A stretch of 64,000 bases of DNA from Squalus acanthias (taxonomy: Eukaryota), in assembly GCA_030390025.1 (NCBI GenBank), contig JASTWF010000244.1, forward strand, positions 496,001-560,000, read 5' to 3'. Position numbers and translations under genes: made by a program. Of the stretch, positions 8,805 to 35,100 are shown one piece after another. Within the stretch, counting starts at the first letter, position 1; each line of letters begins with the position of its first letter. The notes below the pieces were generated by a model, which was given only the letters and a program-made list of their open reading frames with translations, did no database searches and was not told where the DNA came from.

Positions 8805-10039
8805 CTTTAAAATAATTTAAAACATTAATATACATAAAAGTACCTTAAAATCACAAATAGATGGAAGGTTACATGAGGAGTTTTTAAACTTTTAGCTGTT
8901 ATTCACACACCAAAAAAAATTGAAAACTAATTGCTACAAACTTTGTAACTATTTCTAGTAAAACTTTCATTTTTATAACATGAAAAGTTTTCTGTCTTGG
9001 GAATCAGTTTTATCGGTTCGGAATCTTTCCATAAAATAAAGTATGTAAAATATTTTTGTCTCTTGTTGCCCTATCATGGTCCCAGTCCTATTTTTCCCAA
9101 TGCAGAACACTGTACTACCGCAGTTTAGAAATTTCTTCAGAAAAGGTAAATTAAGTTTCACTCTGACTACAGGTATACCATCGCTAATGCAAACCAAAAT
9201 GGGGATGAGGGTGTTCCAATCTAATTTGTATCAATACTGCTACAAACTAATATATTTGCACTGCCCTATTGGCAGCAGCACTCCTGATCTTCTTAAGAAA
9301 ACACACCATGCATAATTTATTTATGTCAGCATCACAACTTTGCTCCAGTGAAAATTGATCAATTCCAATTTGTAAATAACTTTACAGATTGTCACATCTC
9401 TTTAGTCAGTATTCTATTACATCAGATGACAAATGATAGTAAAGTACAACGGCTTGAAATTATAAATGATTTTTTTAAAGTTAAAAAGCCTTCAAAACAA
9501 TAGTGAACTCCTGAAATAATTCTGAAAGAGTGTAATTTTGAAAATATCATATGAGTGAGTAATGTATGGCCTCTGCCTACAGCTGGCAAAATAACAAATG
9601 GTCTGGATGGTCATCCTAAAGAGTCAACAACTGCACAATATCTCCCCAAAGAAAGAGATAGGCTGACACAAGAAGGAAGACTGGAGCACAGCCCTCTATT
9701 CACTACTAGAATAGCAATCCAACCCAAAGACACCGTCGTGTAAAATAATGTAAACTTATCTATATTGCACACCCAATCAGCGAAGTTCATGTAAAAACAA
9801 TTAATGCACTCATACTACATTATGTAGGTCCATTTAAAAAGTAATACACACAGGAACGTAGTGTGAGCATGCTAAGCCTTTATACTTGAACTTTGGTGAC
9901 TAGAAGTATTGATATTTACATCTGTAAGTACATGCAAGAAAAAGTGCTACAACTGCACCACTGTATCAACCTGTGTAAAGCTTTTTTTAATTAAAGCTAA
10001 AACATGATAGTTTCAAAAAAAAATTCTGCTGAACCAAAG

Positions 10040-10570
10040 CAGATATTAGGACAGGTGAACAAAAGTTTGGTCAAAGAGGTGTCTTTAAGAAGGAGAGGGA
10101 GGTGGAGAGGCAGAGAGGTTTAGGTAGGACATTCCAGAGCCTGGGGTCCAAACGGTGAAAGGCACAGCCACCAATGGTGGAGCAAAGGAAGGGGGAAGAT
10201 ACACAATGGGCCAGCATCAGAAGAGCTGAGAGTTTTGTGTGTGTGAGGGAGTGGGGGTGGGCTGGGGTGTTGTCTGGCTGCAGCAGGGGCAAGGCCATGA
10301 AGGAATTTGAACAAGAGAATGAGCATTTTAAATTGGAGGTACTGGGTAACCAGGAGCCAATGTATGTCAGTAAGGACAGGGGAGATAGAACCCAGGCATG
10401 GTGCAGGATAGTATATGGGCCACAGAGATTTGGAAGAGCCGCAGTTTATGGAGCATGGAGGACGGCCAGGAGTTGAGTCTGGAGGTGACAAAGGCATGGA
10501 TGAGGGTTTCAGTAGCAGATTGGCTCAGATGCACAATGTTATGGAGGTGGAAGTAGGTGGTGATGGAGAA
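10040..10570 (-). mobile_element. Degraded L2-like LINE 3' remnant
   Basis: ORFs 10120..10497 and 10071..10298 contain ISPVLTDIHWL..QFKMLILLFKFLHGLAP and IGGCAF...PRLWNVLPKPL, typical of the L2 ORF2 C-terminus. Confidence 0.7.
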
Positions 10571-12790: not shown

Positions 12791-13428
12791 CAAATATAAC
12801 TTAGTGACTAACCCCTCCAATATAATTCCTAAAATAAAAATGTAAACTTAAAATATATAGCCAATTTGCAATAAAGCTAAACTTTATCCGAAATTTTTTT
12901 TTTAAATCCACTCTCAGGCCGGAATCTTGCTGGCGCTCAGAGGGCGGGTTCGGAGCCGGGTCCGCTGTTAAAATCTCAAAGATTGACAGCGGGTCGGGAG
13001 CCCGCTGTGAACCCATGTCAGTTTCCCAAGTGTCAGTTTGCCTGTGCTTTACAGACCCAACACTAAGCGACGAGTGAGCCAATTGAAATAGTTAAGAGGC
13101 TGTTAAAAGGTACTTAAATAGCATTTTACCATCTACTTAAAATTTTTCCAGCTTTTTGACAAGTTTCACGGCACTCGGGAATCACATCAGGTAAGTAGGT
13201 CGGGTTTTAAATGACTCACCATTGCTCTGAATAGGTGACAGCTGCAAAAGTGGTATAAAAGCTACCATTTCACAGCTGCTCAATTTCCAATGTTAGAAGC
13301 CGGAGACTTCAGGATTTGGAAGACACTTTTGAGCTTTATGCAGTTTGGAAGTGTTTGGAGTAAACTCTCTATCCACTGTCACCTCCTTGGAACAACCTCC
13401 GTCACCATTGACAGATCGCTTCCGTCAT

Positions 13429-14938
13429 CAGAATTCATTAGACTCGGGAACAGTGCCCATGGATTGGAGGGTAGCTAACGTTACCCCACTATTCAAAAAG
13501 GGGGGTAGGGAAAAAGCAGGTAATTACAGACCTGTAAGCCTTACATCAGTTGTGGGCAAAATGCTGGAGTCCATCATTAAGGATGAAATAGCCGAGCACT
13601 TAGCAAATGGGGACAGGATAGGACAGAGTCAACATGGATTTACAAAGGGTAAATCGTGCTTGACTAATCTATTGGAATTTTTTGAGGGAGTAACGGGTAA
13701 AATAGATGGGGGAGAGCCAGTAGATGTGGTGTACCTGGACTTCCAAAAGGCCTTCGATAAGGTCCCACATAAAAGATTAGCATGGAAAATTGAAGCTCAT
13801 GGGATAAAGGGGAAAGTATTGACGTGGATAGAGAACTGGCTGTCAGATAGAAAACAGAGAGTTGGAATAAACGGCTCATTTTCTGAATGGCAGGCAGTAA
13901 CAAGTGGGGTACCACAGGGATCTGTCCTGGGTCCCCAGCTGTTCACAATTTATATTAATGACCTGGATCAGGGAGTCGAATGCAGCATTTCCAAATTTGC
14001 AGACGACACTAAACTAGGAGGGGGGGTGGGCTCAGAGGAGGAGACCAGGAAGCTCCAGAGCGATTTGGACAGACTGGGTGATTGGGCGGATAAATGGCAG
14101 ATGCACTATAATGTGGACAAGTGCGAAGTTATCCACCTTGGGTGCAGGAACGGGAGGGCAAATTATTATTTAAATGGCAATAAATTGGGAGAGGGGGAAG
14201 TACAGAGAGACCTGGGTGTTCTTGTACACCAGTCACTGAAGGCGAGCATGCAGGTGCAACAGGCGGTCAAGAAGGCAAACGGTATGCTGGCCTTCATAGC
14301 AAAAGGGTTGGAATACAGGAACAGGGATACCTTGCTGCAGCTGTACAGGGCACTGGTGAGACCACACCTCGAGTACTGTGTACAGTTTTGGTCGCCTCAT
14401 CTGAGGAAAGATGTTCTTGCCATGGAGGGGGTGCAGCGGCGATTCACCAGGCTGATACCAGGAATGGCGGGATTGACCTATGAGGAGAGACTATGTAGTT
14501 TAGGGATGTACACACTGGAGTTTAGAAGATTGAGAGGGGACCTCATAGAAGTGTATAAAATTCTGACAGGTCTAGACAGATTAGATGCAGAAGGAATGTT
14601 TCCCTTGGCGGGTGAGAACAGAACTAGAGGACATAATTTAAGGATAAGGGCTAAACCATTTAGGACAGAAATGAGGGGGAATTTCTTCACTCAGAGAGTG
14701 GTGAACCTGTGGAACTCATTGCCACAGAGGGCAGTGTACGCCAGCTCATTAAATATATTTAAGAGGGAATTAGATATATTTCTACAGGCAAAAGGGGTTA
14801 AGGGTTACGGAGAGAAGGCGGGGACGGGATACTGAATTGAAGGATCAGCCATGATCTCATTAAATGGCGGAGCAGGCTCGAAGGGCCGGATGGCCTACTC
14901 CTGCTCCTATCTTCTATGTATCTATGTATCTATGTATC
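13429..14938 (+). mobile_element. Young 5'-truncated CR1 (HER1-like) LINE with an uninterrupted RT frame
   Basis: Open frame from QNSLDSGTVP to the stop at 14835 with all RT motifs (FADDTK). It has a 3' UTR and a (TCTATGTA)3 tail. The host element sequence rejoins across the insertion. Confidence 0.95.
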
Positions 14939-15699
14939 TCAACTTCAGCTGCCATCTATTCCATCAGCATCGGTGTCCTTCAAAAAATCTCACCTTGGTC
15001 CTCAGAATCCCACCAGATCAGCCCCAACACCAACATCACCAGGCACACCAGCAGCACCAACAACAACACCAACCTTCTCCGCAATCACTTGATGCTGGAC
15101 AGGACACAGGGCATCAGCACCTGACCACATTGCTGCCTGGGAGGCCAGCGATGGCCTCACCATGGCCAGATTAACTTCACTTGATGCTGTACTCCTGGCT
15201 GCCTCATGGTGCGCCAGATTGGCACCACCCCACACCAGCACCATAAACCATCCCTGCAATGCCTAAGCCATTCCTTTCACACTCATCACCATTGGGGGGC
15301 GGGGTGGGTGGTGTGGGTGCCCTTATGTCTCACCAATCACTACAACTCACTAAGCCACTTCCAAAGGTGCACACAAATCTGTCCAAGAAGGCAGTGTTGA
15401 AAATAAAGATTTCAATGTTTGACAACACATTAGCAGAAACTCTACATGAACATTGGCTAAAAGACCCAAGTGCATACCCTTGTGTGTTGTTAGTTGGTAT
15501 GATTGGACAAGGATAAGGGTGAGTGTGAGGGGTGGCTAGTGAGATGGGGATGTGATAATGTAGATAGAGAGAGAGGGATGGGTGAAGGTGCAAGGTAAGT
15601 TGGTGTGAGTAAGGATGTGCAGGAGTAGGGTAGGGAAGGCAGAGTTATGGGGATGTGATGAGTGGCACAGCAGGATAAGATTGAGTGTGGCTTTGCACT

Positions 15700-15965
15700 A
15701 ATGTTTCATGATCTACTGAGATCATTGAAAGGTTTGCACCACTGCAGCCAGGCCGTCCTGACGATATCCCTTCTTGTGTCCTCCTGTGCAATGTGCAACC
15801 AGGCTGCGTGGTCTCCTGGGGAGGTCTCTTCTGCCCATTAGAAGGGAAGAGAAGGGAGTCATGGGAGAGCCTGGGAGCAGCCGTGCACCTCTGTGCAGTG
15901 CTCGTCAGTGCTTGCAGCACCTCAGCACACTGACAGCACAACTGTCAAAATCAATGTGGACATGG
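15700..15965 (-). pseudogene. Remnant of the Harbinger Myb/SANT-like (trihelix, NAIF1-like) DNA-binding protein
   Basis: Minus-strand translation with one frameshift gives AAPRLSHDSL..LFPSNGQKRPPQETT / AAWLHIAQEDTRRDIVRTAWLQWCKPFNDLSRS. This matches the W..IA......R.W.QC.K.FNDL helix pattern. Confidence 0.72.
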
Positions 15966-16285
15966 TGCCTTTAAGGAAACCAGCTGATGACATGTCATCA
16001 AATGACGTCATCAGACCCGCTTCCTTTTAATTGGCCAGGAACCTTGCAGGGCGCGGTTAACAATCCCAATCAGGCCAAAATCACTTCAACAGAGCGCAAT
16101 AGAACCGGGAGCAGGGTTGCAGTTCGTCACCTACCTCGGCCGCACTTAGCCCGCCTCGGTTAAGCTGTTTACCGTGGCACTAAAGCCACTCTCACGGTGA
16201 CAGGTGTAATTCAAATCCAAATAATTCAAATTTAAAAAGAATAAACTATCAGTGACTGTGCATACTTCCCTCCACATTACCCTTT

Positions 16286-17090
16286 GGGGGCGATTTTGTT
16301 AATGGGGGCGCGTTGGAGGCGGGACTGCTGCTTGACGGGTCGATGTCCCGCCTCCATCGATTTGTGGCCAACCCACGCTTAGCAAGCCAATTAAGGGAAA
16401 GCCGATTGCAGAGAATGTCAACGTATGACGTTTCATCAGTCAAAAAATTTTGACAGATGAATTGTCATCGTTTGACAACTCTATGAAGCTGTCAAACACT
16501 GACATTCTCTGCAGTTTGATGAGGTCTTGCATTCAAGACCTCATCAAACTTCTTTCTTTTACAGAAATGAGATGGTTGTTGCATCTGAGAATGCAACAGC
16601 CATCTCTCATCTGCAACACGGAGGTCCGAGACTCTCCGCATACAAACCGACTGAAGCCTGCAGGAAGAAACAAAGGTAAGTACACTTTTAAAAACACTTT
16701 GCACTTACCTCAGATACTCACCTCTACACTCTTGCAGCCATCACTTACCTTCACACCACACTTTTGCACCCCTCCCAACCCCCGCAGACCCAGTACTCGC
16801 CTCGCTGAGCTGGCGGGTTTTGGAGCCTTCGGGAAGTCCGCACTTGTGAGGGCAAAAAGGGGATAATCCTATTTTCTGCCTGTTAACTACCTGTTAACAG
16901 GCAGTTAATAGGCTTTAATCCCTTCCTGCCTCCAAGGAGACGGGACCCGGTGTAGGAAGGCTACCCGCCTCCTGGGAAGATGGCATGGAGGTGCGTTGGG
17001 GGTGAGTTGGGCACCCGCCCCCAAATTCTGCCATTTTCCCGGCAGTCCCGCCTCCATACCTGCCTCCCCAGGGCTGGCAAAATCGCCCCC
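16286..17090. mobile_element. Second Harbinger-type MITE (805 bp), inverted relative to 4288-5136
   Basis: TIRs GGGGGCGATTTTG (16286-16298) and CAAAATCGCCCCC (17078-17090). It shares internal blocks with 4288-5136 in the opposite orientation (TGCCTGTTAAC..GTTAACAGGCAG palindrome; AATTAAGGGAAAGCCGAT). No TSD recognisable. Confidence 0.8.
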
Positions 17091-17360
17091 CGAGTCATTA
17101 TATTAATGACTTGAATGAAGAAATAGAGAGTTATATATCCAAGGTGTAGATGATACTAAGTTAGGAGGCACAGTAACTCACATAGATGGGAGCAGAAAGT
17201 TAAAAGGGACGTAGACATTAAGTGAGTGGGCAAAACTGTGGCAGATTGAATTCCAATGTGGGGAAGTGTGAGGTACTCCACTTTGGATCCAAGATTGACA
17301 AATATCAATGGCGAGTGACTAGAAACTGTAGAGGAGCAAAGGGATTTCAGTGTCCATGAT

Positions 17361-20110
17361 CGCTTTTTAAAAATTCGTTCCTGGGATGTGGGTGACAAGG
17401 CCAGCATCTATTGCCCATCCCTAATTGCCCTTGAGAAGGTGGTGGTTTCTTGAACCGCTGCAGTCCTTGTGGTGAAGATACTCCCATAGTGCTGTTCGGG
17501 AGGGAGTTCCAGGATTTTGAACCAGCGAGGGTGAAGGAACAGCAATATATTTCCAAGTTAGGGTGGTGTGTAACTTGAAGGGGAACTTGCAGGTGATGGT
17601 GTTCTCAGGCACCTACTGCCCTTTTCCTTCTAGGTGGTAGAGGTCATAGGTTTGGGAGGTGCTGCAGAAAAAGCCTTGGCGAGTTGCTGCAGTGCATCTT
17701 TTGGATGGTACACACTGCAGCCACGGTGCGCCGGTGGTGGAGGGAGTGAATGTTTAAAGTGGTGGATGGGGTGCCAATCAAGCGGGCTGCTTTGTCTTGG
17801 ATTGTGTCGAGCTTCTTGAGTGTTGTTGGAGCTGCACTAATCCAGGCAAGTGGAGAGTATTCCATCAAACTCCTGACTTGTGCCTTGTAGATGGTGGAAA
17901 GGCTTTGGGGAGTCAGGAGGTGAGACACTCTCCGCAGAATACCCAGCCTCTGACCTGCTCCTGTTGCCACAGTATTTATGTGGCTGGTCCAGTTAAGTTT
18001 CTGGTCAATGGTAACCCCCAGGATGTTGATGGTGGGGGTTACCGCGATGGTAATGCCATTGAATGTCAAGAGGCAGTGGTTAGACTCTCGCTTGTTGGAG
18101 ATAGTCATTGCCTGGCACTTGTGTGGCGCAAATGTTACTTGCCACTTATCAGCCCAAGTCTGAATGTCGTCCAGGTCTTGCTGCATGGACTGCTTCATTC
18201 TCTGAGGAGTTGCGAATGGAACTGAACACTGTGCAATCATCAGCGAACATCCCCAGTTCTGACCTTATGATGGAGGAAGGTCATTGATGAAGCAGCTGAA
18301 GCTGGTTAGGCCGAGGACACTGCTCTGAGGAATTTCTGCAGCAATGTCCTGGGGCTGAGATAATTGACCTCCAACAACCACAACCATCTTCCTTTGTGCT
18401 AGGTATGACTCCAGCCAGTGGAGAGTGTTCCCCCTGATTTCCATTGACTTCAATTTTACTAGGGCTCCTTGATGCCACACTCAGTCAAATGCTGCCTTGA
18501 TGTCAAGGGCAGTCACTCTTACCTCACCTCTGGAATTCAGCTCTTTTTTCCATGTTTGGACCAAGGCTGTAATGAGGTCGGGAGCCGAGTGGTCCTGGTG
18601 GAACCCAAACTGAGCATCAGTGAGCAGGTTATTGGTGAGTAAGTGCCACTTGACAGCACTGTCAATGACACCTTCCATCACTTTGCTGATGATTGACTGA
18701 TGGGGTGGTAATTGGCCAGATTGGATTTGTCCTGCTTTTTGTGGACAGGACATACCTGGGCAGATTACCACCTTGTTGGGTAGATGCCAATGTTGTAGCT
18801 GTACTGGAACAGCTTGGCTAGAGGAGCGGCTACTTCTGGAGCACAAGTCTTCAGCATGACAGCCGGGATGTTGTCGGGGCGCATAGCCTTTGCTGTATCC
18901 AGTACACTCAGCCGTTTCTTGATATCACGTGGAATGAATTGAATTGGCTGAAGACTGGCTTCTGTGATGGTGGGGAGGAGGAGGAGGCTGATATAGATCC
19001 TCCACTCGGCACTTCTGGCTGAAGATAGTTGCAAACACTTCAGCCTTGTCTTTTGCACTCATGTGCTGGGCTACACCATCATTGAGGATGGGGATATTCA
19101 TGGAGCCTCCTCCTTCCATTAGTTGTTTAATTGTCCACCACCATTCACGACTGGATGATGCAGCACTGCAGAGCTTTCATCTGATCCGTTGATTGTGGGA
19201 TTGCTTAGCTCTGTCTATAGCATGCTGCTTCCACTGTTTAGCGTCCTTCAGGACTCGGCCAGCTTGGTCAGTAGTGGTGCTACCGAGCCACTCTTGGTGA
19301 TAGACAGTGAAGTCCTCCACCCAGAGTACATTCTGTGCCCTTGCTACCCTCAGTGCTTCTTCCAAGTGGTGCTCAACATGGAGGAGTACTGATTCACCAG
19401 CTTAGGGAGGGCGGTAGGTGGTAATCAGCAGGAGGTTTCCTTGCCCATGCTTGACCTGAAGCCATGAGACTTCATGGGGTCCATGTTGAGGACTCCCAGG
19501 ACCACTCCCTCCCGAATGTATACCACTGTGCCGCCAGCTCTGGTGGGTCTGTCCTGCCAGTGGAAGTTTGGAACATTGGCTGAAAGGTATGATTCTGTGA
19601 GTATGACTGTCAGGCAGTTGCTTGACTAGTCTGTGGGACAGCTCTCCCTGTTTTGGCTCATGTCCCCAGATGTTCGTCAGGAGGATTTTGCAGGGTCGAC
19701 TGGGCTGGGTGTGCCGTTGTCGTGTCCAAATCCGGTGCCGAGGTCGATGCCGGGTGGTCCGTCCAGTTTTATTCTTATTATTGTTTTTCGTAGTGGTTTG
19801 TTACAACTGAGTGGTTTGCTAGGCCATTTCAGAGTCAACCACATTGCTGTGGGTCTGGAGTGACATAAAGGCCAGCCCAGGTAAGGACGGCAGATTTCCT
19901 TCCCTAAAGGACATTAGTGAACCAGATGGGTTTTTACGACAATCCGATAGTTTCATGGTCACCATTACTGATACTAGCTTTTATTCCAGACTTATTTAAT
20001 TAACAGAATTTAAATTCCCCAGTTGCTGTGGTGGAATTTGAACTCACATCTCTGGATCATTAGTCTAGGCCTCTGGATTACTAGTCCAGTATCATAACCC
20101 CTATGCTACC
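17361..20110 (-). mobile_element. Non-LTR retrotransposon of a second (CR1/L2-group) family with a tRNA-derived 5' head and a decayed, internally deleted APE-RT ORF
   Basis: RT fragments DIKAAFD, PQSSVLG, FADD and QQDLDDIQTWADKWQVTF (ORFs 17644-19058). APE N-terminus TNIWG..PKQGELSHRLVKQLPD..ILTESY at ~19680-19590. 3' tail CTCAAGGGCAATTAGGGATGGGCAATA..CACATCCC at ~17380-17435. The 5' end has Pol III A- and B-box-like motifs at 20098-20108 and 20033-20045. Confidence 0.85.
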
Positions 20111-20287
20111 ATTCACAAAATCCTAAAAGCTAGTGCAGAAACAAAAAGTAATCCAACAGGGTAATGGAATGTTAGCCTTTATCTCAAGGTGGTTGGAATA
20201 CAAAGGGGAGGGATTTATGCTTCAGTTGTACAGAGCCTTGGTCAGACCCCATCGGGAGTACTGCGTTCAGTTATAGGCACCGCACCT

Positions 20288-20875
20288 TGTGGGAGCGAAA
20301 GTCCGTATTACCCAAATACCTCACTATTCTTTCTGCGCCGTCTGTGAGATCAGCACATGCTGGGTTGAAAGTTAAAACAGCTTTCTGCTGAGCATAGGTT
20401 GTAAATTGGGTAAGAGATCAAAGCAGAGGATGTCCTCACAGGAAAGACGATACTAGAAGGTGTGAGAGTCATTCAGCCATATTCAAATGTGTCAATTTGA
20501 TCACCTGTGTGTTATAGTAAAAAAATGGATGGCAAATGTGTTATTACAGTATTTAGAAGAGTTGAGAACCTGGTTGTTTAGTTTACATTGTTATTCTGTT
20601 GGCATTTGCATGTACCTTTGATGTACCATGATTTGTTGATAGTATGCATGGAATGTAGTGATCAATGGGGAAAATTAGTATAAGAAATGTAAGGCAACAC
20701 TGTTTAGTAGCACACACTGGAATCATGGAACGTGTGTGTCTCAGCAGCTCTCATACTGATTTTGTGTAGTATGAGGTTTCAATAAAGACCTGATCCAGCA
20801 TTACTACAACCGAGTGTGTGTGTAATCTGACGTTTAAAGCAATGAAATGAAAAAGAACAAGAAAGCAGTCCAACA
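20288..20875 (+). mobile_element. Solo LTR (588 bp)
   Basis: TG...CA termini with a short inverted repeat TGTGGGA/TCCAACA. 5-bp TSD CACCT (20283-20287) / CACTT (20876-20880). TATA-like motif at ~20680 and AATAAA at 20781. It interrupts the host CR1 cleanly. Confidence 0.85.
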
Positions 20876-22494
20876 CACTTCAGGAAGGATAGATTGGCCT
20901 TGGAGATTAATAAATCTATACAACTTTTAAGGAGAGGACCTACAACGGTCCCTTCCAACCTTTATTTACATGTGGTGATCAGAATACCAGAGTATAAAGG
21001 GTTAAATTATGACAACAGGTTGCATAAATTTAGCTTGTATTCCCTTAAGGGATGAGGGGTGATCTAATTGAGGTGTTTAAAATGATAAAAGGATTTGATA
21101 GAGTAGATACAGAGAAGCTATTTCCTCTGGTGGGGGAATCCAGAACAAGGGGGCACGAACTTAAAATTAGAGCTAGGCCGTTCAGGAGCGAAATCAGGAA
21201 GCATTTTTTCACACAAAGGGTAGTGGAAACATGGAATTCTCTCCCCAAAAGGCTGTGAATTCTGGGTCAATTGTAATTTTCAAGAACACGATCAACATTT
21301 TATCAGGTAAAGGTATCAAGGGACATGGATCAAAGGCGGGTAATTTGAGTTGAGGTACAGATCAGCCATGATCTAATTGAATTGTGGAAAACTCTCGAGG
21401 GGCTGAATGGTCTATTGTTCCTCGGTCCCTTGTGCAAATGTATCAAAAATTGGCACATTCCATAACGTAAATGTTACAATAAAATTATGCAACTATTGAA
21501 CCAACTGTCACCCCCCATGAGTAGTAAACAATAATAATTTACCACCCCTCCTGATCTTTTACGCTGGGTCAAAATTCAATTCGCTTGAATCAGGCTCTGC
21601 CCACAAAACTGGCCAGAATTGAGAGATTCCATCGAATGCACTGGTTCAGGAAAACTTATTTTTGGTGATAAACCCATTTTATTAATAAAACTTCACCAGG
21701 TTACCACTCTTAAATACATCAAGGAATACTTTTTAATGGAAAGTGAAGAAAAAGAAGCAATTATGTTCTATTACGATGCCCGATTGTGCTGGTTCATGGA
21801 AGATTTTACGTTTGCAATAATGCAAATGAATTTTAGCGGAAACTTGAAGCGTAACTTAACCAGCACAATTTCAATTTATTGATTGCACCCAAAGCAGAAA
21901 CTCTATCTCATTGTACTTAAATTTACAAAGATTAATAACATTGTATTACAGTGCAACATTAAAACATATCACAGTGACTTCATGATAAAGAGTACTTATT
22001 ATTATGGAAATAATCTTTACATTTTTTAAAGTTCTCTGTTAAAAGAGTAAACAGAAAAGAAAAGGCACATAAAAGTATGAGTTTAGATGAGTAAAGTTCT
22101 TAGGCATCATAAAAGTACTATAACATCAGATATTGTAGGTGGTTTGTGACTCGTGTGCAGTCCAGACCAGACCAGACTCTACCATTAACAATTATTTTTT
22201 TAAATAACTGTAGAAGTTACTGTACAGTGATGCAGTTGGAGATTAGACAACGATGAGTATTTCTTGGTGCCATGAACAACAGGAACAAGTCAGGATGATA
22301 GTGAATTCTCCTTCCTGAAATCATAGACAGGGGAGGTAAAGAGCAGAGAACACTATACTGAGAATAATAAATCATAACTCATTTTAGCTGTATTTCTGAG
22401 AGTGGGAAACTTCACCGGAAAAACTTCAAACTGTTGCATTTGTGCCTTCATTTTGTAAAAGAGGAAGTAAAAGAAAAATCAGATCATTAATATC

Positions 22495-22655
22495 CATCTG
22501 ATGGAGAAAGCAAGATGACAAGACACAAAGCTAAAATCATCCTCTTTGAACTGGAAACACCAACATTTCAATGATTTTCCCCTCAGGAAATATATCTCTG
22601 AAAACCTGCAGTTTAACAGCGTCTCGGAATTATTAGGCTGTTTTACTTTCGTTAT
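22495..22655 (-). pseudogene. Degenerate duplicate of exon 1 (leader) and proximal promoter, inside intron 1
   Basis: Aligns with 22968-23115. It reads ATG(22540)-MILALCLVILLSPS versus MRILPLCVVIVPFISLS. The donor is lost (TCAG|AT instead of TCAG|GT). A degenerate IRF-like site TTACTTTCGTT lies at ~22643. Confidence 0.7.
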
Positions 22656-22968
22656 TACACAGCCATTTATTAATAGAGTTAAGGAGAAAAGTCACTTAAG
22701 AATCACGATACTGCACAGCCCAACCCTTTTGTATTTTGGGTCGAAATAAATATCAAGACAAGTATTTCAATTACTGAACGTTTTGATAAATCATTAGTAG
22801 AAACTAAATCCGTGCAGCACATCAGAGGGACTAACGTCTTTGTGCTTGTACGGAGAATTGGTCTGAAGCAAAGTAAAGGTCGAACTTATGATCCAAAACC
22901 ACATTACACGGTTGTTTGTCCAGTCTATCAATGCCAAACAATCTGACCCAAGAGAAACCAGGACCTAC

Positions 22969-23020
22969 CTGATAATGAAATGAAAGGCACGATGACAACA
23001 CACAAAGGTAAGATCCTCAT
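22969..23020 (-). CDS. Exon 1 (signal peptide) of the B7-H6/NCR3LG1-like gene
   Basis: aaagATGA start at 23020 encodes the hydrophobic leader MRILPLCVVIVPFISLS plus G, followed by donor G|gtagg. The phase-1 end joins in frame to the IgV exon (G+GC = Gly, then TLELEIF). Linking it to exon 2 across 14,164 bp is an inference. Confidence 0.78.
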
Positions 23021-23100
23021 CTTTGAATTGGAAAGTACATCCTTTATTCACCTGGGATTATATTCCTGAAGATCTGCTGGGCAAAGTACAGGGATGATTT

Positions 23101-23126
23101 TTACTTTCACTTCACTGATTCCGCCC
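23101..23126 (-). promoter_or_regulatory. Putative proximal promoter: IRF-E/ISRE-like site plus GC box
   Basis: Minus-strand AAGTGAAAGT (23103-23112) is the IRF1/2 and PRDI-type consensus. GGGCGG at 23121-23126 lies ~80-105 bp upstream of the ATG. Confidence 0.6.
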
Positions 23127-26100
23127 AGGTATGTTTACGGAGTGACCATAACGAGGATATTACGCAACAAGCTGTGACAAAAAAATCACTGGAGTCTCTG
23201 TAAACTGCCATGTATTTTATTAATTTTAATGTTGAAAGCAAGAGAGTATTTCCGTTTGTTTTCTGCCGAAGCGATTGTTGAGCTGGTTGGTTTTTACAGA
23301 AGAATTTTTTTAAATAGGTCCCTCCCTCCCGTTAGATCTGTATCATGTTCTTCCCGGCCCATCCCTCCCACCCATCAGACCTGGATCTTGTTCTCCCCGG
23401 CCCCTCCCTCCCGTTAGACCTGGATCATGTTCCCCCCCCCCGGCCTCCTCCCATCAGATTTGGATCATGTTCTTCCCGGCCCCTCCCTCCGGTTAGACCT
23501 GGATCATGTTCTCCCAGCCCCTCCCTCCCATTAGAACAGGATCATGATTTCCCCATCCTCTCCCTCCGGTTAGAACTGGATCATGTTCTCCCCGGCCTCT
23601 ACCTCCCGTTAGACCTGGATCATGTTCTCCCGGACCCTCCCTCCCGTTAGATCGGGATCATGCTCTCCCGGACCCTCCCTCCCGTTACACCCGGATCATG
23701 TTCTCCCCGGCCCCTCCCATTAGACCTGGATCATGTTCTCCCTGGCCCCTCCCATTAGACCTGGATCATGTTCCCCCCGGCCCCTCCCGTTAGACCTGGA
23801 TCATGTTCTCCCCGGCCCCTCCCTCCCGTAAGACCTGGATCATGTTCTCCCGGCCCCTCCCTCCCGTTAGACCTGGATCATGTTCTCCCAGCCCCTCCCT
23901 CCCATTAGAACTGGATCATGTTCTCCCCATCCTCTCCCTCCGGTTAGACCTGGATCATGTTCTCCCCAGCCCCTCCCTCCTGTTAGATCTGGATCATGTT
24001 CTCCCGACCTCTCCCTCCTGTTAGACCTGGTTCATGTTCTCCCCCGCCCCTCCCTCCCATTAGATCTGGATCATGTTCTTCCCGGCCCCTCCCTCCGGTT
24101 AGACCTGGATCATGTTCTCCCCATCCTCTCCCTCCGGTTAGACCTGGATCATGTTCTCCCCAGCCCCTCCCTCCTGTTAGATCTGGATCATGTTCTCCCG
24201 ACCTCTCCCTCCTGTTAGACCTGGTTCATGTTCTCCCCCGCCCCTCCCTCCCATTAGATCTGGATCATGTTCCCCCTGGCCCCTCCCTCCCGTTAGATCT
24301 GGATCATGTTCTCCTGGCCCCTCCCTCCCGTTAGACCTGGATCATGTTCCCCACCGGCTCCTCCTTCCCATTAGATCTGGATCATGTTCTCCTGGTCCCT
24401 CCCTCCCGTTAGACCTGGAACATGTTCTCCCGGGCCCCTGCCTCCTGTTAGATCTGGATCATGTTCTCCCCGGCCCCTCCCTCCCATTAGACCTGGATCA
24501 TGTTCTCCCCGGCCCCTCCCTCCCATTAGACCTGGATCATGTTATCCCCGGCCCCTCCCATTAGACCTGGATCATGTTCTCCCCGGCCCCTCCCGTTAGA
24601 CCTACATCATGTTTCCCCTGGCCCCTCCCTCCCGTTAGACCTGGATCATGTTCCCCCCGGCCCCTCCCTCCTGTTAGACCTGGATCATGTTCCCCCCGGC
24701 CCCTCCCTCCTGTTAGACCTGGATCATGTTCCCCCGGCCCCTCCCATTAGACCTGGATCATGTTCTTCCCAGCCTCTCCCTCCCATAAGACCTGGATCAT
24801 GTTCCCCCCGGCCCCTCCCATTAGATCTGGATCATGTTCTTCCCGGCCCCTCCCTCTGGTTAGACCTGGATCATCTTCTCCCAGCCCCTCCCTCCCATTA
24901 GAACTGGATCATGTTCTCCCCATCCTCTCCCTCCGGTTAGACCTGGATCATGTTCTCCCCGGCCTCTACCTCCCGTTAGACCTGGATCATGTTCTCCCCA
25001 GCCCCTCCCTCCTGTTAGATCTGGATCATGTTCTCCCGACCTCTCCCTCCCGTTACACCTGGATCATGTTCCCCCCGGCCCCTCCCTCCCGTTAGATCTG
25101 GATCATGTACTCCCGGACTCTCCCTCCCGTTAGACCTGGAGCATGTTCTCCCCGGCCCCTCCCTCCTGTTACACCTGGAGCTTGTTCTCCCCGGCCCTTC
25201 CCTCCTGTTAGACCTGGATCATGTTCTCCCCGGCTCCTCCTTCCCATTAGATCTGGATCATGTTCTCCTGGCCCCTCCCTCCCGTTAGACCTGGAACATG
25301 TTCTCCCGGGCCCCTCCCTCCTGTTAGATCTGGATCATGTTCTCCCCGGCCCAACCCTCCCGTTAGACCTGGATCATGTTATCCCCGGCCCCTCCCATTA
25401 GACCTGGATCATGTTCTCCCCGGCCGCTCCCGTTAGACCTGGATCATGTTCTCCCCGGCCCCTCCCGTTAGACCTGGATCATGTCCCCCCCGGCCCCTCC
25501 TGTTAGATCTGGATCATGTTCTCCCCGGCCCCTCCCTCTCGTTAGATCTGGATCATGTTCCCCCCGGCCCCTCCCTCCTGGTAGATCTGCATCATGTGCC
25601 CCCCGGCCCCTCCCTCCCGTTAGACCTGGATCATGTAACCCCCCGGCCCCTCCCTCCTGTCAGACCTTGATCATGTTCCCCCCGGCCCTTCCCTCCTGTT
25701 AGACCTGGATCATGTTCCCCCGGCCCCTCCCGTTAGACCTGGATCATGTTCTTCCCGGCCCCTCCCTCCCGTTAGATCTGGATCATGTTCTCGCCGGCCC
25801 CTCCCTCCCGTTAGACCTGGATCATGTTCTCCCCGGCCCCTGCCTCCCGTTAGATCTGGATCATGTTCTCCCCATCCTCTCCCTCTGGTTAGACATGGAT
25901 CATGTTCTCCCCGGCCCCTCCCTCCCATTAGACCTGGATCATGTGCTCCCCGGCCCCTTCCATCCCGTTAGACCTGGATCATGTTCTCCCCGGCCCCTAC
26001 CTCCCATTAGATCTGGATCATGTTCATCCCGGCCCCTGCCTCCAGTTAGACCTGGATCATGTTCTCCCTGGCCTCTCCCTCCCGTTAGACCTGGATAATG

Positions 26101-29100
26101 TTCTCCCCGGCCTCCACCTCCCGTTGGATCTGCATCATGTTCTCCCCGGACCCTTCCTCCCGTTAGATCTGGATCATGTTCTCCCGACCTCTCCCTCCCA
26201 TTAGACCTGGATCATGTTCCCCCCCGGCCCCTCGCTTCCGTTAGACCTGGATCATGTTCTCCCTGGCCCCTCCCTCCCATTAGATCTGGATCATGTTCTC
26301 CCCGGCCTGTCCCTCCCGTTAGACCTGGATCATGTTCTCCCCGGCCCCTCCCTCCCATTAGACCTGGATCATGTTCTCCCCGGCCCCTCCCTCCCATTAG
26401 ACCTGGATCATGTTATCCCCGGCCCCTCCCATTAGACCTGGATCATGTTCTCCCCGGCCCCTCCCGTTAGACCTGGATCATGTTCTCCCCGGGCTCTACC
26501 TCCCGTTAGACCTGGATCATGTTCTCCCCGGCCCCTCCCTCCTGTTAGACCTGGATCATGTTCTCCCGGACCCTCCCTCCCGTTAGTTCTGGATCATGCT
26601 CTCCCGGACCCTCCCTCCCGTTACACCCGGACTTGTTCTCCCCGGCCCCTCCCATTAGACCTGGATCATGATCTCCCTGGCCCCTCCCATTAGACCTGGA
26701 TCATGTTCCCCCCGGCCCCTCCCGTTAGACCTGGATCATGTTCTCCCCGGCCCCTCCGTCCCGTAAGATGTGGATCATGTTCTCCCGGCCCCTCCCTCCC
26801 GTTAGACCTGGATCATGTTCCCCCCGGCCCCTCCCATTAGATCTGGATCATGTTCTTCCTGGCCCCTCCCTCCGGTTAGACCTGGATCATGTTCTCCCAG
26901 CCCCTCCCTCCCATTAGAACTGGATCATGTTATCCCCATCCTCTCCCTTCGGTTAGACCTGGATCATGTTCTCCCTGTCCTCTACCTCCCGTTAGACCTG
27001 GATCATGTTCTCCCCAGCCTCTCCCTCCTGTTAGATCTGGATCATGTTCTCCCCGGCCCCTCCCTCCCATTAGATCTGGATCATGTTCCCCCCAGCCCCT
27101 CCCTCCTGTTAGATCTGGATCATTTTCTCCCGGCCTTTCCCTCCCGTTAGACCTGGATCATTTTCTCCCCGGCCCCTCCCTCCTGTTACACCTGGATCTT
27201 GTTCTCCCCGGCCCCTTCCTCCCGTTAGATCTGGATCATGTTCTCCCCGGCTCCTCCTTCCCATTAGATCTGGATCATGTTCTCCTGGCCCCTCCCTCCC
27301 GTTAGACCTGGAACATGTTCTCCCGGGCCCCTCCCTCCTGTTAGATCTGGATCATGTTCTCCCCGGCCCCTCCCTCCCATTAGACCTGGATCATGTTCTC
27401 CCCGGCCCCTCCCTCCCATTAGACCTGGATCATGTTATCCCCGGCCCCTCCCATTAGACCTGGATCATGTTCTCCACGGCCCCTCCCGTTAGACCTGGAT
27501 CATGTTGTCCCCGGCCCCTCCCGTTAGACCTGTATCATGTCCCCCCCGGCCCCTCCAGTTAGATCTGGATCATGTTCTCCCCGGCCCCTCCCTCCCGTTA
27601 GATCTGGATCCTGTTCCCCCCGGATCGTCCCTCCCGTTAGACCTGGATCATGTTCCCCCCGGCCCCTCCCTCCTGTTAGACATGGATCATGTTCCCCCCG
27701 GCCCCTCCCTCCTGTTAGACCTGGATCATGTTCCCCCGGCCCCTCCCATTAGACCTGGATCATGTTCTTCCCGGTCCCTCCCTCCCGTTAGATCTGGATC
27801 ATGTTCTCGCCGGCCCCTCCCTCCCGTTATACCTGGATCATGTTCTAACTGGCCCCTCCCTCCCGTTAGATCTGGATCCTGTTCTCCCCATCCCCTCCCT
27901 CCGATTAGACATGGATCATGTTCTCCACGGCCCCTCCCTCTCATTAGACCTGGATCATGTTCTCCCCGGCCCCTTCCATCCCGTTAGACCTGGATCATGT
28001 TCTCCCCGGCCCCTACCTCCCATTAGATCTGGATCATGTTCTCCCCGGCCCCTGCCTCCGGTTAGACCTGGATCATGTTCTCCCTGGCCTCTCCCTCCAT
28101 TTAGACCTGGATAATGTTCTCCCCGGCCTCCACCTCCCGTTAGACCTGGATCATGTTCTCCCCGGCCCCTCCCTCCCGTTAGATCTGGATCATGTTCTCC
28201 CGACCTCTCCCTCCCATTAGACCTGGATCATGTTCCCCCCGGCCCCTCGCTCCCGTTAGACCTTGATCATGTTCTCCCTGGCCCCTCCCTCCCATTAGAT
28301 CTGGATCATGTTCTCCCCGGCCTCTCCCTCCCGTTAGACCTGGATCATGCTCTCCCCGGCCCCTCCCTCCCATTAGACCTGAATCATGTTCTCCCCGGCC
28401 CCTCCCTCCCATTAGACCTGGATCATGTTCTCCCGGACCCTCCCTCCCGTTACACCTGGATCATGTTATCCCCGGCCCCTCCCATTAGACCTGGATCATG
28501 TTCTCCCCGGCCCCTCCCGTTGAACCTGGATCATGTTCCCCCCGGCCCCTCCCTTCCATTAGAACTGGATCATGTTCTCCCTGGCCCCTCGCTCCCGTTA
28601 GACCTGGATCTTGTTCTCTCCGGCTCCTCCTTCCCATTAGACCTGGAGCATGTTCTCCCAGACCCTCCCTCCCGTTACACCCGGATCATGTACACCCCGG
28701 CCCCTCCCATTAGACCTGGATCATGTTCTCCCCGGCCCCTCCCGTTAGACCTGGATCATGTTACCCCCGGCCCCTCCCGTTAGACCTGGATCATGTTCTC
28801 CCCGGCCCCTCCCTCCCGTAAGATCTGGATCATGTTCTCCCGGCCCCTCCCTCCCGTTAGACCTGGATCATGTTCCCCCCAGCCCCTCCCATTAGATCTG
28901 GATCATGTTCTTCCTGGCCCCTCCCTCCGGTTAGACCTGGATCATGTTCTCCCAGCCCCTCCCTCCCATTAGAACTGGATCATGTTATCCCCATCCTCTC
29001 CCTCCGGTTAGACCTGGATCATGTTCTCCCTGGCCTCTACCTGCCGTTAGACCTGGATCATGTTCTCCCCAGCCCCTCCCTCCTGTTAGATCTGGATCAT

Positions 29101-32100
29101 GTTCTCCCGACCTCTCCCTCCCGTTAGACCTGGATCATGTTCTCCCCGGCCCCTCCCTCCCATTAGATCTGGATCATGTTCCCCCCGGCCCCTCCCTCCC
29201 GTTAGATCTGGATCATGTTCTCCCGGCACCTCCCTCCCGTTAGACCTGGATCATTTTCTCCCCGGCCCCTCCCTCCTGTTACACCTGAAAATTGTTCTCC
29301 CCGGCCCCTCCCTCCCGTTAGATCTGGATCATGTTCTCCCCGGCTCCTCCTTCCCATTAGATCTGGATCATGTTCTCCTGGCCCCTCCCTCCCGTTAGAC
29401 CTGGAACATGTTCTCCCGGGCCCCTCCCTCCTGTTAGATCTGGATCATGTTCTCCCCGGCCCCTCCCTCCCATTAGACCTAGATCATGTTCTCAACGGCC
29501 CCTCCCTCCCGTTAGACCTGGATCATGTTATCCCCGGCCCCTCCCATTAGACCTGGATCATGTTACCCCCGGCCCCTCCCGTTAGACCTGGATCATGTTC
29601 TCCCCGGCCCCTCCCTCCCGTAAGATCTGGATCATGTTCTCCCGGCCCCTCCCTCCCGTTAGACCTGGATCATGTTCCCCCCGGCCCCTCCCATTAGATC
29701 TGGATCATGTTCTTCCTGGCCCCTCCCTCCGGTTAGACCTGGATCATGTTCTCCCAGCCCCTCCCTCCCATTAGAACTGGATCATGTTATCCCCATCCTC
29801 TCCCTCCGGTTAGACCTGGATCATGTTCTCCCTGGCCTCTACCTGCCGTTAGACCTGGATCATGTTCTCCCCAGCCCCTCCCTCCTGTTAGATCTGGATC
29901 ATGTTCTCCCGACCTCTCCCTCCTGTTAGACCTGGATCATGTTCTCCCCGGCCCCTCCCTCCCATTAGATCTGGATCATGTTCCCCCCGGCCCCTCCCTC
30001 CCGTTAGATCTGGATCATGTTCTCCCGGCACCTCCCTCCCGTTAGACCTGGATCATTTTCTCCCCGGCCCCTCCCTCCTGTTACACCTGAAAATTGTTCT
30101 CCCCGGCCCCTCCCTCCCGTTAGATCTGGATCATGTTCTCCCCGGCTCCTCTTTCCCATTAGATCTGGATCATGTTCTCCTGGCCCCTCCCTCCCGTTAG
30201 ACCTGGAACATGTTCTCCCGGGCCCCTCCCTCCTGTTAGATCTGGATCATGTTCTCCCCGGCCCCTCCCTCCCATTAGACCTAGATCATGTTCTCAACGG
30301 CCCCTCCCTCCCATTAGACCTGGATCATGTTATCCCCGGCCCCTCCCATTAGACCTGGATCATGTTCTCCCCGGCCCCTCCCGTTAGACCTGGATCATGT
30401 TGTCCCCGGCCCCTCCCGTTAGGCCTGGATCATGTCCCCCCCGGCCCCTCCAGTTAGATCTGGATCATGTTCTCCCCGGCCCCTCCCTCCCGTTAGATCT
30501 GGATCATGTTCCCCCCGGCTCCTCCCTCCCGTTAGACCTGGATCATGTTCCCCCCGGCCCCTCCCTCCTGTTAGACCTGGATCATGTTCCCCCCGGACCC
30601 TCCCTCCCGTTAGACCTGGATCATGTTCTCCCCGGCCCCTTCCATCCCGTTAGACCTGGATCATGTTCTCCCCGGCCCCTACCTCCCATTAGATCTGGAT
30701 CATGTTCTCCCCGGCCCCTGCCTCCGGTTAGACCTGGATCATGTTCTCCCTGGCCTCTCCCTCCATTTAGACCTGGATAATGTTCTCCCCGGCCTCCACC
30801 TCCCGTTAGACCTGGATCATGTTCTCCCCGGCCCCTCCCTCCCGTTAGATCTGGATCATGTTCTCCCGACCTCTCCCTCCCATTAGACCTGGATCATGTT
30901 CCCCCCGGCCCCTCGCTCCCGTTAGACCTGGATCATGTTCTCCCTGGCCCCTCCCTCCCATTAGATCTGGATCATGTTCTCCCCGGCCTCTCCCTCCCGT
31001 TAGACCTGGATCATGCTCTCCCCGGCCCCTCCCTCCCATTAGACCTGGATCATGTTCTCCCGGACCCTCCCTCCCGTTACACCTGGATCATGTTATCCCC
31101 GGCCCCTCCCATTAGACCTGGATCATGTTCTCCCCGGCCCCTCCCGTTGAACCTGGATCATGTTCCCCCCGGCCCCTCCCTTCCATTAGAACTGGATCAT
31201 GTTCTCCCTGGCCCCTCGCTCCCGTTAGACCTGGATCTTGTTCTCCCCGGCTCCTCCTTCCCATTAGACCTGGATCATGTTCTCCCAGACCCTCCCTCCC
31301 GTTACACCCGGATCATGTACACCCCGGCCCCTCCCATTAGACCTGGATCATGTTCTCCCCAGCCCCTCCCGTTAGACCTGGATCATGTTACCCCCGGCCC
31401 CTCCCGTTAGACCTGGATCATGTTCTCCCCGGCCCCTCCCTCCCGTAAGATCTGGATCATGTTCTCCCGGCCCCTCCCTCCCGTTAGACCTGGATCATGT
31501 TCCCCCCGGCCCCTCCCATTAGATCTGGATCATGTTCTTCCTGGCCCCTCCCTCCGGTTAGACCTGGATCATGTTCTCCCAGCCCCTCCCTCCCATTAGA
31601 ACTGGATCATGTTATCCCCATCCTCTCCCTCCGGTTAGACCTGGATCATGTTCTCCCTGGCCTCTACCTGCCGTTAGACCTGGATCATGTTCTCCCCAGC
31701 CCCTCCCTCCTGTTAGATCTGGATCATGTTCTCCCGACCTCTCCCTCCCGTTAGACCTGGATCATGTTCTCCCCGGCCCCTCCCTCCCATTAGATCTGGA
31801 TCATGTTCCCCCCGGCCCCTCCCTCCCGTTAGATGTGGATCATGTTCTCCCGGCACCTCCCTCCCGTTAGACCTGGATCATTTTCTCCCCGGCCCCTCCC
31901 TCCTGTTACACCTGAAAATTGTTCTCCCCGGCCCCTCCCTCCCGTTAGATCTGGATCATGTTCTCCCCGGCTCCTCCTTCCCATTAGATCTGGATCATGT
32001 TCTCCTGGCCCCTCCCTCCCGTTAGACCTGGAACATGTTCTCCCGGGCCCCTCCCTCCTGTTAGATCTGGATCATGTTCTCCCCGGCCCCTCCCTCCCAT

Positions 32101-35100
32101 TAGACCTAGATCATGTTCTCAACGGCCCCTCCCTCCCGTTAGACCTGGATCATGTTATCCCCGGCCCCTCCCATTAGACCTGGATCATGTTCTCCCCGGC
32201 CCCTCCCGTTAGACCTGGATCATGTTGTCCCCGGCCCCTCCCGTTAGGCCTGGATCATGTCCCCCCCGGCCCCTCCAGTTAGATCTGGATCATGTTCTCC
32301 CCGGCCCCTCCCTCCCGTTAGATCTGGATCATGTTCCCCCCGGCTCCTCCCTCCCGTTAGACCTGGATCATGTTCCCCCCGGCCCCTCCCTCCTGTTAGA
32401 CCTGGATCATGTTCCCCCCGGACCCTCCCTCCCGTTAGACCTGGATCATGTTCTCCCCGGCCCCTTCCATCCAGTTAGACCTGGATCATGTTCTCCCCGG
32501 CCCCTACCTCCCATTAGATCTGGATCATGTTCTCCCCGGCCCCTGCCTCCGGTTAGACCTGGATCATGTTCTCCCAGCCCCTCCCTCCCATTAGAACTGG
32601 ATCATGTTATCCCCATCCTCTCCCTCCGGTTAGACCTGGATCATGTTCTCCCTGGCCTCTACCTCCCGTTAGACCTGGATCATGTTCTCCCCAGCCCCTC
32701 CCTCCTGTTAGATCTGGATCATGTTCTCCCGACCTCTCCCTCCCGTTAGACCTGGATCATGTTCTCCCTGGCCCCTCCCTCCCATTAGATCTGGATCATG
32801 TTCTCCCCGGCCTCTCCCTCCCGTTAGACCTGGATCATGTTCTCCCCGGCCCCTCCCTCCCATTAGACCTGGATCATGTTCTCCCCGGCCCCTCCCTCCC
32901 GTTAGACCTGGATCATGTTCTCCCGGACCCACCCTCCCGTTACACCTGGATCATGTTATCCCCGGCCCCTCCCATTAGACCTGGATCATGTTCTCCCCGG
33001 CCCCTCCCGTTAGACGTGGATCATGTTCCCCCCGGCCCCTCCCTTCAATGAGAACTGGATCATGTTCTCCCCGGCCCCTCCCGTTAGACGTGGATCATGT
33101 TCCCCCCGGCCCCTCCCTTCCATTAGAACTGGATCATGTTCTCCTGGCCCCTCCCTCCCGTTAGACCTGGATCATGTTCTACCAGACCCTCCCTCCCATT
33201 ACACCCGGATCATGTACTCCCCGGCCCCTCCCATTAGACCTGGATCATGTTCTCCCCGGCCCCTCCCGTTAGACCTGGATCATGTTCCCCCCGGCCCCTC
33301 CCGTTAGACCTGGATCATGTTCTCCCCGGCCCCTCCCTCCCGTTAGACCTGGATCATGGTCTCCCAGCCCCACCCTTCCGTTAGACCTGGATCATGTTTC
33401 CCCCAGCCCCTCCCATTAGATCTGGATCATGTTCTTCCCGGCTCCTCCCTCCGGTTAGACATGGATCATGTTCTCCTGGCCCCTCCCTCCCATTAGATCT
33501 GGATCATGTTCTCCCCATCCTCTCCCTCCGGTTAGACATGGATCATGTTCTCCCCGGCCCCTCCCTCCCGTTAGATCTGGATCATGTTATCCCGACCTCT
33601 CCCTCCCGTTAGATCTGGATCAGGTTCTCCCCGGCCCATCCGTCCCATTAGACCTGGATCATGTTCTCCCCGGCCCCTCCCTCCCGTTAGATCTGGATCA
33701 TGTTCTCCCGGACCCTCCCTCCTGTTAGACCTGGATCATGTTCCCCCCGGCCCCTCCCTCCTGTTAGACCTGGATATGTTCCCCCCGGACCCTCCCTCCC
33801 GTTAGACCTGGATCATGTTCTCCCCGGCCCCTTCCATCCCGTTAGACCTGGATCATGTTCTCCCCGGCCCCTACCTCCCATTAGATCTGGATCATGTTCT
33901 CCCCGGCCCCTGCCTCCGGTTAGACCTGGATCATGTTCTCCCTGGCCTCTCCCTCCATTTAGACCTGGATAATGTTCTCCCCGGCCTCCACCTCCCGTTA
34001 GACCTGGATCATGTTCTCCCCGGCCCCTCCCTCCCGTTAGATCTGGATCATGTTCTCCCGACCTCTCCCTCCCATTAGACCTGGATCATGTTCCCCCCGG
34101 CCCCTCGCTCCCGTTAGACCTGGATCATGTTCTCCCTGGCCCCTCCCTCCCATTAGATCTGGATCATGTTCTCCCCGGCCTCTCCCTCCCGTTAGACCTG
34201 GATCATGCTCTCCCCGGCCCCTCCCTCCCATTAGACCTGGATCATGTTCTCCCGGACCCTCCCTCCCGTTACACCTGGATCATGTTATCCCCGGCCCCTC
34301 CCATTAGACCTGGATCATGTTCTCCCCGGCCCCTCCCGTTGAACCTGGATCATGTTCCCCCCGGACCCTCCCTTCCATTAGAACTGGATCATGTTCTCCC
34401 TGGCCCCTCGCTCCCGTTAGACCTGGATCTTGTTCTCCCCGGCTCCTCCTTCCCATTAGACCTGGATCATGTTCTCCCAGACCCTCCCTCCCGTTACACC
34501 CGGATCATGTACACCCCGGCCCCTCCCATTAGACCTGGATCATGTTCTCCCCAGCCCCTCCCGTTAGACCTGGATCATGTTACCCCCGGCCCCTCCCGTT
34601 AGACCTGGATCATGTTCTCCCCGGCCCCTCCCTCCCGTAAGATCTGGATCATGTTCTCCCGGCCCCTCCCTCCCGTTAGACCTGGATCATGTTCCCCCCG
34701 GCCCCTCCCATTAGATCTGGTTCATGTTCTTCCTGGCCCCTCCCTCCGGTTAGACCTGGATCATGTTCTCCCAGCCCCTCCCTCCCATTAGAACTGGATC
34801 ATGTTATCCCCATCCTCTCCCTCCGGTTAGACCTGGATCATGTTCTCCCTGGCCTCTACCTGCCGTTAGACCTGGATCATGTTCTCCCCAGCCCCTCCCT
34901 CCTGTTAGATCTGGATCATGTTCTCCCGACCTCTCCCTCCCGTTAGACCTGGATCATGTTCTCCCCGGCCCCTCCCTCCCATTAGATCTGGATCATGTTC
35001 CCCCCCGGCCCCTCCCTCCCGTTAGATCTGGATCATGTTCTCCCGGCACCTCCCTCCCGTTAGACCTGGATCATTTTCTCCCCGGCCCCTCCCTCCTGTT

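Follow-up and report, generated by a model that had tools for sequence, protein, structure and literature searches.

The window analysed here, a stretch of 64,000 nucleotides of Squalus acanthias DNA, contains the 5' part of a B7-H6-like gene on the minus strand and, just upstream of this gene, the beginning of a long tandem array. The signal-peptide (leader) exon at 22969..23020 (52 nt) comprises 17 codons plus 1 nt and ends in a phase-1 GT donor. It is followed by intron 1 (8805..22968, minus strand, 14,164 nt), which consists largely of LINE and SINE fragments, and by an IgV exon at 8478..8804 (minus strand, 327 nt, phase 1-1, AG and GT ends), the phase of which matches that of the leader exon. 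The IgV exon matched the Pfam V-set model with an E value of 6.3e-9. A tblastn search for the C1 exon gave no match within the window, and the gene's own C1 exon is located outside of it. A reverse transcriptase stretch (Pfam RVT_1) of 500 uninterrupted codons at 13333-14835 on the plus strand of intron 1, antisense to the gene, belongs to a young, 5'-truncated LINE.

When the Heterodontus orthologue was used in tblastn, it matched the leader exon at 23020-22967 with 83% identity (E 7.5e-4), and the N-terminus of this protein recovered exactly the leader and the IgV exons in the window. Over the first 17 residues of the leader, 14 of 17 were identical in Heterodontus and 12 of 17 in Scyliorhinus torazame; 6 to 11 residues matched in the other species, and 1 to 2 in three models with different starts. 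The homologues of the IgV exon were 18 proteins, all from elasmobranchs and with identities of 63 to 80%. The closest came from Heterodontus francisci (80% across the V domain), and the RefSeq models of Rhincodon typus and Scyliorhinus canicula designated "NCR3LG1-like" were 68 to 70% identical. Together with one further protein, these 18 document conservation of the gene across skate and sharks, and, to judge from the isoform names, each species probably has a single locus. The IgV domain in the window is four residues shorter than those of five aligned orthologues, just past the conserved tryptophan. The sequences of X5, a second individual, differ from the window at positions 8596, 8758, 8795, and 8800 of the IgV exon; these positions are usable as allele markers and possibly reflect polymorphism in an immune gene.

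The orthologues possess a V-set and a C1-set domain (in four of the four that were scanned), a membrane anchor, and long repetitive cytoplasmic tails. Human B7-H6 (NCR3LG1; PDB 6yjp, 4zso, and 3pv6) shares with them the succession of leader, V-set domain, C1-set domain, and membrane anchor, and the long repetitive tail is on the side of the sharks. The C-terminal and cytoplasmic regions of the orthologues are of very unequal length, with 322 to 1730 aa in total and lineage-specific repeats, and the tails include a repeated domain of about 120 to 170 aa without a convincing Pfam match. When the V and C1 domains of the whale-shark orthologue were compared with solved structures, human B7-H6 ranked first by single stretch (82 bits, E 3.6e-22), and CD276 reached its value of 87 only when two repeats with 39 and 47 were added up. 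The V domain from the window alone placed CD276 and B7-H4 slightly above B7-H6. Judged from these sequence comparisons, the gene appears to encode a member of the B7 family, for which the label "B7-H6-like" is fair; the gene identity proposed in the earlier note is thus retained, with B7-H6 as the solved structure closest per single stretch. By analogy, the shark product could be a ligand of NKp30.

Four runs were compared with positions 8300-23420. Transcription of the leader exon was judged from two of them, X6 and X7, which are RNA runs by guess (samples S3 and S4; X7 carries the same organism label); of the runs listed as containing 21600-23316, none is recorded as RNA. Contig 25 of X7 (278 letters, depth 3.7) places its first 190 letters on 8614-8803, which, among the equivalent placements of the predicted splice, is the one farthest to the left. 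If the remaining 88 letters are located in the bin 22945-23420, the expected depth of this bin is 3.7 x 88 / 476 = 0.684 compared to the recorded 0.68, and the first part yields 3.7 x 190 / 505 = 1.39, which is the depth of the first bin. The break of the contig at the IgV acceptor and the matching bin depths indicate a spliced transcript that reaches at least position 23055. From this depth arithmetic, we infer that a transcript with the leader spliced to the IgV exon was present in the probable RNA run X7 and that the 5' UTR comprises at minimum 23021..23055 on the minus strand, as required by the 88 letters beyond the IgV exon. The RNA evidence comes from another sample (S4), which may or may not carry the junction, so that expression from an allele next to the array is presumptive. 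The depth of the last X7 bin is completely explained by contig 25, so no coverage is left for the first 104 bases of the array; this blank was not counted as silence of the array. Contig 24 of X6 (22793-22986) and contig 32 of X7 (22706-22881) were discarded as transcript support; they are intronic or unspliced across the donor site and may represent pre-mRNA or DNA. At a depth of 3.7, the transcript contigs speak neither for nor against damping of the gene. Phase match, orthologue leader, and, by inference, contig 25 all agree with the earlier expectation that the leader exon is transcribed and spliced to the IgV exon.

Between the start codon and the array is a unique gap of 296 bp (23021..23316, minus strand), which contains the 5' UTR and likely the proximal promoter. 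The gap has 37% GC, 7 CpG, and no match to a TATA motif, and it is spanned by contig 8 of the public DNA run X1. A GGGCGG motif at 23121..23126 (minus strand), which we take to be a GC box, occurs 8 times in the 23.3-kb flank. A 10-mer at 23103..23112 (minus strand), presumably IRF/PRDM1-like, is not a full ISRE with two GAAA. Measured from the array start at 23317, the distances are 297 bp to the ATG (23020), 191 bp to the GC box, and 205 bp to the IRF-like 10-mer, which agrees with the roughly 300 and 200 bp given before. The IRF-like site itself stands in part: the 10-mer is present at 23112-23103, the full form GAAA-NN-GAAA had 0 matches at the gap, and the short core is common, with 40 occurrences in the 23.3-kb flank compared to 2 of the longer 10-mer form. 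The GC box and the IRF-like site would form the promoter, as far as motifs and position can tell. The gap had also been proposed as a possible site of a boundary element. A scan with a 14-letter CTCF consensus, which is a weaker instrument than a matrix or ChIP, found a best match in the gap with 4 mismatches, and 68 of 76 flank windows were as good or better. The idea of a boundary element was not upheld by this CTCF-like consensus scan, which remained at background and found no such signature in the 296 bp.

The proximal promoter and leader exon exist a second time, as a decayed tandem copy, at 22498..22650 (minus strand) within intron 1, about 470 bp downstream. The local alignment score of this copy was 92, and 1000 shuffles yielded no score above 41. 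The copy contains an ATG at 22540 and keeps the frame for 14 codons, the donor position reads AT, and a stop follows 3 codons later.

The array occupies 23317..64000, runs off the end of the window, and is thus at least 40.7 kb long. TRF assigned a period of 39 to 23320-64000 with 1071 copies and 84% matches, and the monomer register read by eye has its first unit starting at 23317. Units of 35, 38, 39, and 40 bp exist; among 1043 anchor intervals, 581 were 39 bp, 206 were 35 bp, and 200 were 38 bp. The commonest monomer is that of 23790-23828. All units are oriented in one direction, head-to-tail, with 0 inverted units, and no unit-like sequence was present in the 23.3-kb flank when both strands were searched. 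The abrupt array start described before is in accord with the register and with this flank. The array has a GC content of 59% and is C-rich on the plus strand (GC skew about -0.4); as the gene is on the minus strand, its sense strand is the G-rich one, again as proposed. Among the 1026 delimited monomers, 589 carry CCCCTCCC, 732 carry CCGG, and 878 contain 1 or 2 CpG, and the earlier description of typical monomers by these three features is accurate. The class assignment of the earlier note, a "macro-scale satellite," had to be replaced: with a period of 39 bp and 1071 copies, the array belongs to the minisatellites or short-unit satellites, the head-to-tail repeats with units of 10 to a few hundred bp. 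The macrosatellite class was rejected because units in its definition (PMC5687341) are several kb long.

The only interruption of the array is a single insertion at 52193..52618 on the plus strand, which we take to be SINE-like and which is bordered by a target duplication of 13 bp (one mismatch). This insertion contains an internal 47-bp repeat in two copies, and the array stretches beside it recur at an offset of 1592 without the insertion. An origin of the monomer from a transposon, plausible by eye from the LINE and SINE tails, was rejected for the in-window elements compared since the similarity stayed at shuffle level: monomer similarity to five local LINE/SINE tails and the promoter gap gave p values of 0.2 to 1.0, and the best match of the monomer in the 23.3-kb flank was equalled by 31 of 200 shuffles. 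A 24-nt stretch of the monomer had no exact match in JGI metagenome contigs, no Rfam family was found in 21500-24500 (one chance-level match, E 0.66), and the Watson-Crick fold of four monomers was not above that of shuffles (z 0.52). CpG islands have a CpG observed/expected ratio of about 0.6 or above, and the array, with 0.50, was rejected as a CpG island. The ratio in the flank is 0.30.

Evaluation of this arrangement needs to consider whether the junction between gap and array is real. Contig 8 of X1 (1586 letters) spans 21826-23406, its last 90 bases belonging to the array; relative to the window it has 2 mismatched letters and 5 gap letters. It ends where the 31-mers of the window change from single-copy to multi-copy, the last unique 31-mer starting at 23376. 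An artefactual junction is nevertheless conceivable in so far as X1 is possibly the sample behind the window assembly, and in X5 no junction-spanning contig was among the pieces listed, with 55% of X5 covered. The crossing of the junction by contig 8, which stopped just at the switch to multi-copy 31-mers, argues against it, as do the units at the junction, which are unique and the most diverged of the array; an erroneous connection would more likely have led into an ordinary interior unit. A misassembly is hardly credible on this evidence, and the concern raised earlier can be set aside.

The depth of the X1 contigs drops toward the array, from 16.3-17.9 to 15.3, 10.2, and 8.78. The half-depth near the junction (8.78 and 10.2 in 21360-23406 compared to 15.3-17.9) may result from dropout near the purine-rich array or from a haplotype that is lacking or diverged in the promoter and exon 1. 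Dropout of GA-rich DNA is known in HiFi data (10.1101/2021.07.02.450803) and would apply to X1 if this run was made on that platform.

The interior of the array indicates how it was formed. Exact duplicates of at least 200 bp cover 62% of the array, the longest has 1574 bp at an offset of 3193, and the common offsets range from 1.6 to 8.3 kb. Divergence is flat, with 2.5 to 2.7 mismatches per unit across ten 4-kb bins, the edge excepted. The first six delimited monomers (23332..23569) are the most diverged six-unit run, with a mean of 4.33 mismatches compared to 2.58 overall, a value attained by none of the others among the 1021 six-unit runs. A homogeneous interior together with a diverged edge is the pattern of satellite turnover with a fixed, older boundary. 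The flat interior, the diverged edge, and the kilobase duplicates thus indicate an array that is turning over behind such a boundary. This pattern points to growth by repeated kilobase-scale duplication, and length variation from allele to allele is likely for the same reason. The crude depth was about 480 copy-equivalents in X1 and 170 in X5, with depth not being a copy number. Near-identical units of the edge type were at a few hundred per genome by crude depth compared to about 10^5 for local LINEs, a weak hint that the repeat is a local family.

Among 195 distinct 39-mers, the transition rate at the four CpG positions was 0.179 compared to 0.050 at the other C/G positions, or 3.6-fold higher, and these four positions ranked 2, 4, 5, and 6 of 25. 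Two non-CpG positions of the monomer are as variable as the CpG positions. The comparison covers four positions only in monomers related by descent and has to be read as a footprint, without a formal test. It suggests that the CpG decay in the array is a footprint of germline methylation, in agreement with the methylation considered before. The G4 character of the sense strand, used previously as an analogy, could be verified as motifs: 318 canonical G4 motifs are on the minus strand and 1 is on the plus strand, the first one from the edge being at 23353-23369. A four-tract, short-loop motif (G3+) on the sense strand is present in 293 of 1026 monomers; when monomers were shuffled with their composition kept, 754 of 5000 (15%) also gave rise to a G4 motif. 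The G-tract positions vary no less than the other monomer positions (0.085 compared to 0.061), so there is no sign that the G4 or the CCCCTCCC motif is preserved. The array has a mean G4Hunter-type score of 0.92, and 0.3% of the windows reach 2.

To understand the meaning of this neighborhood, we consider it reasonably probable that the array is a passenger, a giant minisatellite that came to lie beside an intact, compact promoter. A G-rich minisatellite would expand in place by repeated kilobase-scale duplication, growing by unequal exchange or replication slippage, possibly aided by G4 folding, and would be methylated in the germline. Expression of the gene would depend on a compact and likely inducible promoter within the 296-bp gap, and the array would have little or no selected effect on expression. 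Conservation of the gene from skate to sharks implies that the gene should long predate so homogeneous an array. Some elasmobranch genomes are described as having abundant regions that are rich in tandem repeats (10.1101/2025.06.08.657570; PMC10620051). Several points count against a mere passenger. The lack of motif conservation within the array leaves a bulk effect possible. The array, at least 40 kb long and probably methylated, is located about 190 bp from the GC box, and typical promoter VNTRs are far smaller and more distant. Finally, a G-rich array within 2 kb of a TSS is the repeat type most likely to act; expression-linked human VNTRs are reported as 7.9-fold enriched within 2 kb of the TSS with a bias to high GC (10.1101/2020.12.16.423078).

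Such action could be an incidental position effect, with methylated, G4-prone chromatin spreading over the gap and damping or variegating the gene, more so from longer alleles, as an expression QTL. This is possible, if clearly the less probable outcome. The earlier proposal that array length or methylation tunes the gene found no support in any of the results. The candidate promoter motifs are within 191 to 205 bp of the array, the CpG decay and the 318 canonical sense-strand motifs beginning at 23353-23369 fit such chromatin, and the kilobase-scale duplications make length polymorphism likely. Against this, the gap is AT-rich with only 7 CpG, and an upstream-antisense RNA from the promoter would be C-rich and, as far as R-loops are generally understood, less prone to form them. 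Precedents point in both directions. In the human survey, 2,980 of about 70,000 VNTRs are given as eVNTRs, enriched near TSSs (10.1101/2020.12.16.423078), and the psi-zeta VNTR is described as reducing, upon loss of ATRX, the alpha-globin genes near it in dependence on size and distance; the ATRX model, as outlined there, needs transcription through the repeat, and the G4Hunter-type mean of 0.92 in the array compares to over 2 for psi-zeta (PMC13018553). The copy number of the CT47 macrosatellite is reported as uncorrelated with heterochromatin marks (PMC5687341). In a bolder version, the array would measure tens to hundreds of kb, be polymorphic in length, methylated, and rich in G4 motifs, and act from less than 300 bp as a heritable rheostat on an NK-ligand-like gene of the shark, with an unrecognised non-CTCF boundary in the AT-rich gap keeping the promoter open; this we regard as doubtful.

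Alternatively, the array may be a selected element, a multimeric Sp/KLF/MAZ-type or G4 platform that took the place of the enhancer upstream and determines how strongly the immune ligand is expressed. The presence of CCCCTCCC in 589 of the 1026 monomers in one orientation only and the absence of unique upstream DNA past 296 bp within the window would be expected of such a platform; motif positions that are not conserved above background, G4 motifs in 754 of 5000 shuffled monomers, and a CpG decay pointing to a methylated state would not, which renders selection quite unlikely. A rearrangement could also have set the gene beside a pre-existing heterochromatic block, subtelomeric or pericentromeric, with removal of the upstream region and a locus that may be structurally polymorphic. 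The abrupt junction lacking homology between monomer and flank, the X1 depth near the junction (8.78 and 10.2), roughly half of the 15.3-17.9 seen in the gene body, and the decayed promoter/leader duplicate, evidence of a past rearrangement at the locus, agree with this scenario. The edge monomers are the most diverged, though, as expected of a long-standing boundary, the depth gradient toward the purine-rich array could be sequencing dropout, and crude depth yields hundreds, not 10^5, of near-identical units. We consider such a rearrangement very improbable.

At present, the locus is a clean and confirmed case of a minisatellite of very large size directly next to a vertebrate promoter. Its main use is that of a natural experiment on how little unique DNA keeps a promoter active beside a probably methylated array and on whether array size varies the dosage of an immune gene in sharks. 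Should array length tune the gene, regulation by promoter VNTRs would extend to far larger arrays and to the immunity of cartilaginous fish, and the rheostat would mean variation of the immune-ligand level from allele to allele or from cell to cell. As it stands, the juxtaposition of array and promoter would be curious and not surprising to a specialist. Promoter-adjacent G-rich VNTRs are already known, and what is unusual here is the size and the closeness of the array. Among titles and beginnings of abstracts on shark B7-H6 and shark satellites, there was no report of the promoter of this gene or of the 39-bp repeat.

With at least 40 kb, the array far exceeds the typical size of a VNTR. Its distance of 297 bp from the ATG, with a transcript that probably reaches at least to 23055, is in the range of expression-linked VNTRs. 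The human eVNTRs and mVNTRs, as presented by Garg et al. (10.1101/2020.12.16.423078), resemble it in having a GC-rich unit of at least 10 bp within 2 kb of a transcription start; eVNTRs are defined by association with expression, whereas the array is known by sequence and position only. The psi-zeta VNTR is likewise a G-rich tandem repeat with G4 motifs upstream of expressed genes, and it is characterized by 96% GC, a G4Hunter score above 2, a location in a transcribed pseudogene 1 to 12 kb away, and an action when ATRX is lost (PMC13018553), compared to 59% GC and a mean score of 0.92 in the array. The human minisatellites CEB1 and CEB25, also G-rich, are a model for expansion of the array, since their instability depends on G4 folding in the accounts cited (PMC2673046, PMC3486850); folding and instability are demonstrated there, and the array exhibits the motif and past duplications. 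D4Z4, DXZ4, and CT47, finally, are large and GC-rich like the array, methylated, and able to influence nearby chromatin, but their units are given as several kb long and often hold genes or promoters (PMC5687341), in contrast to the unit of 39 bp that is pressed against the B7-H6-like gene.
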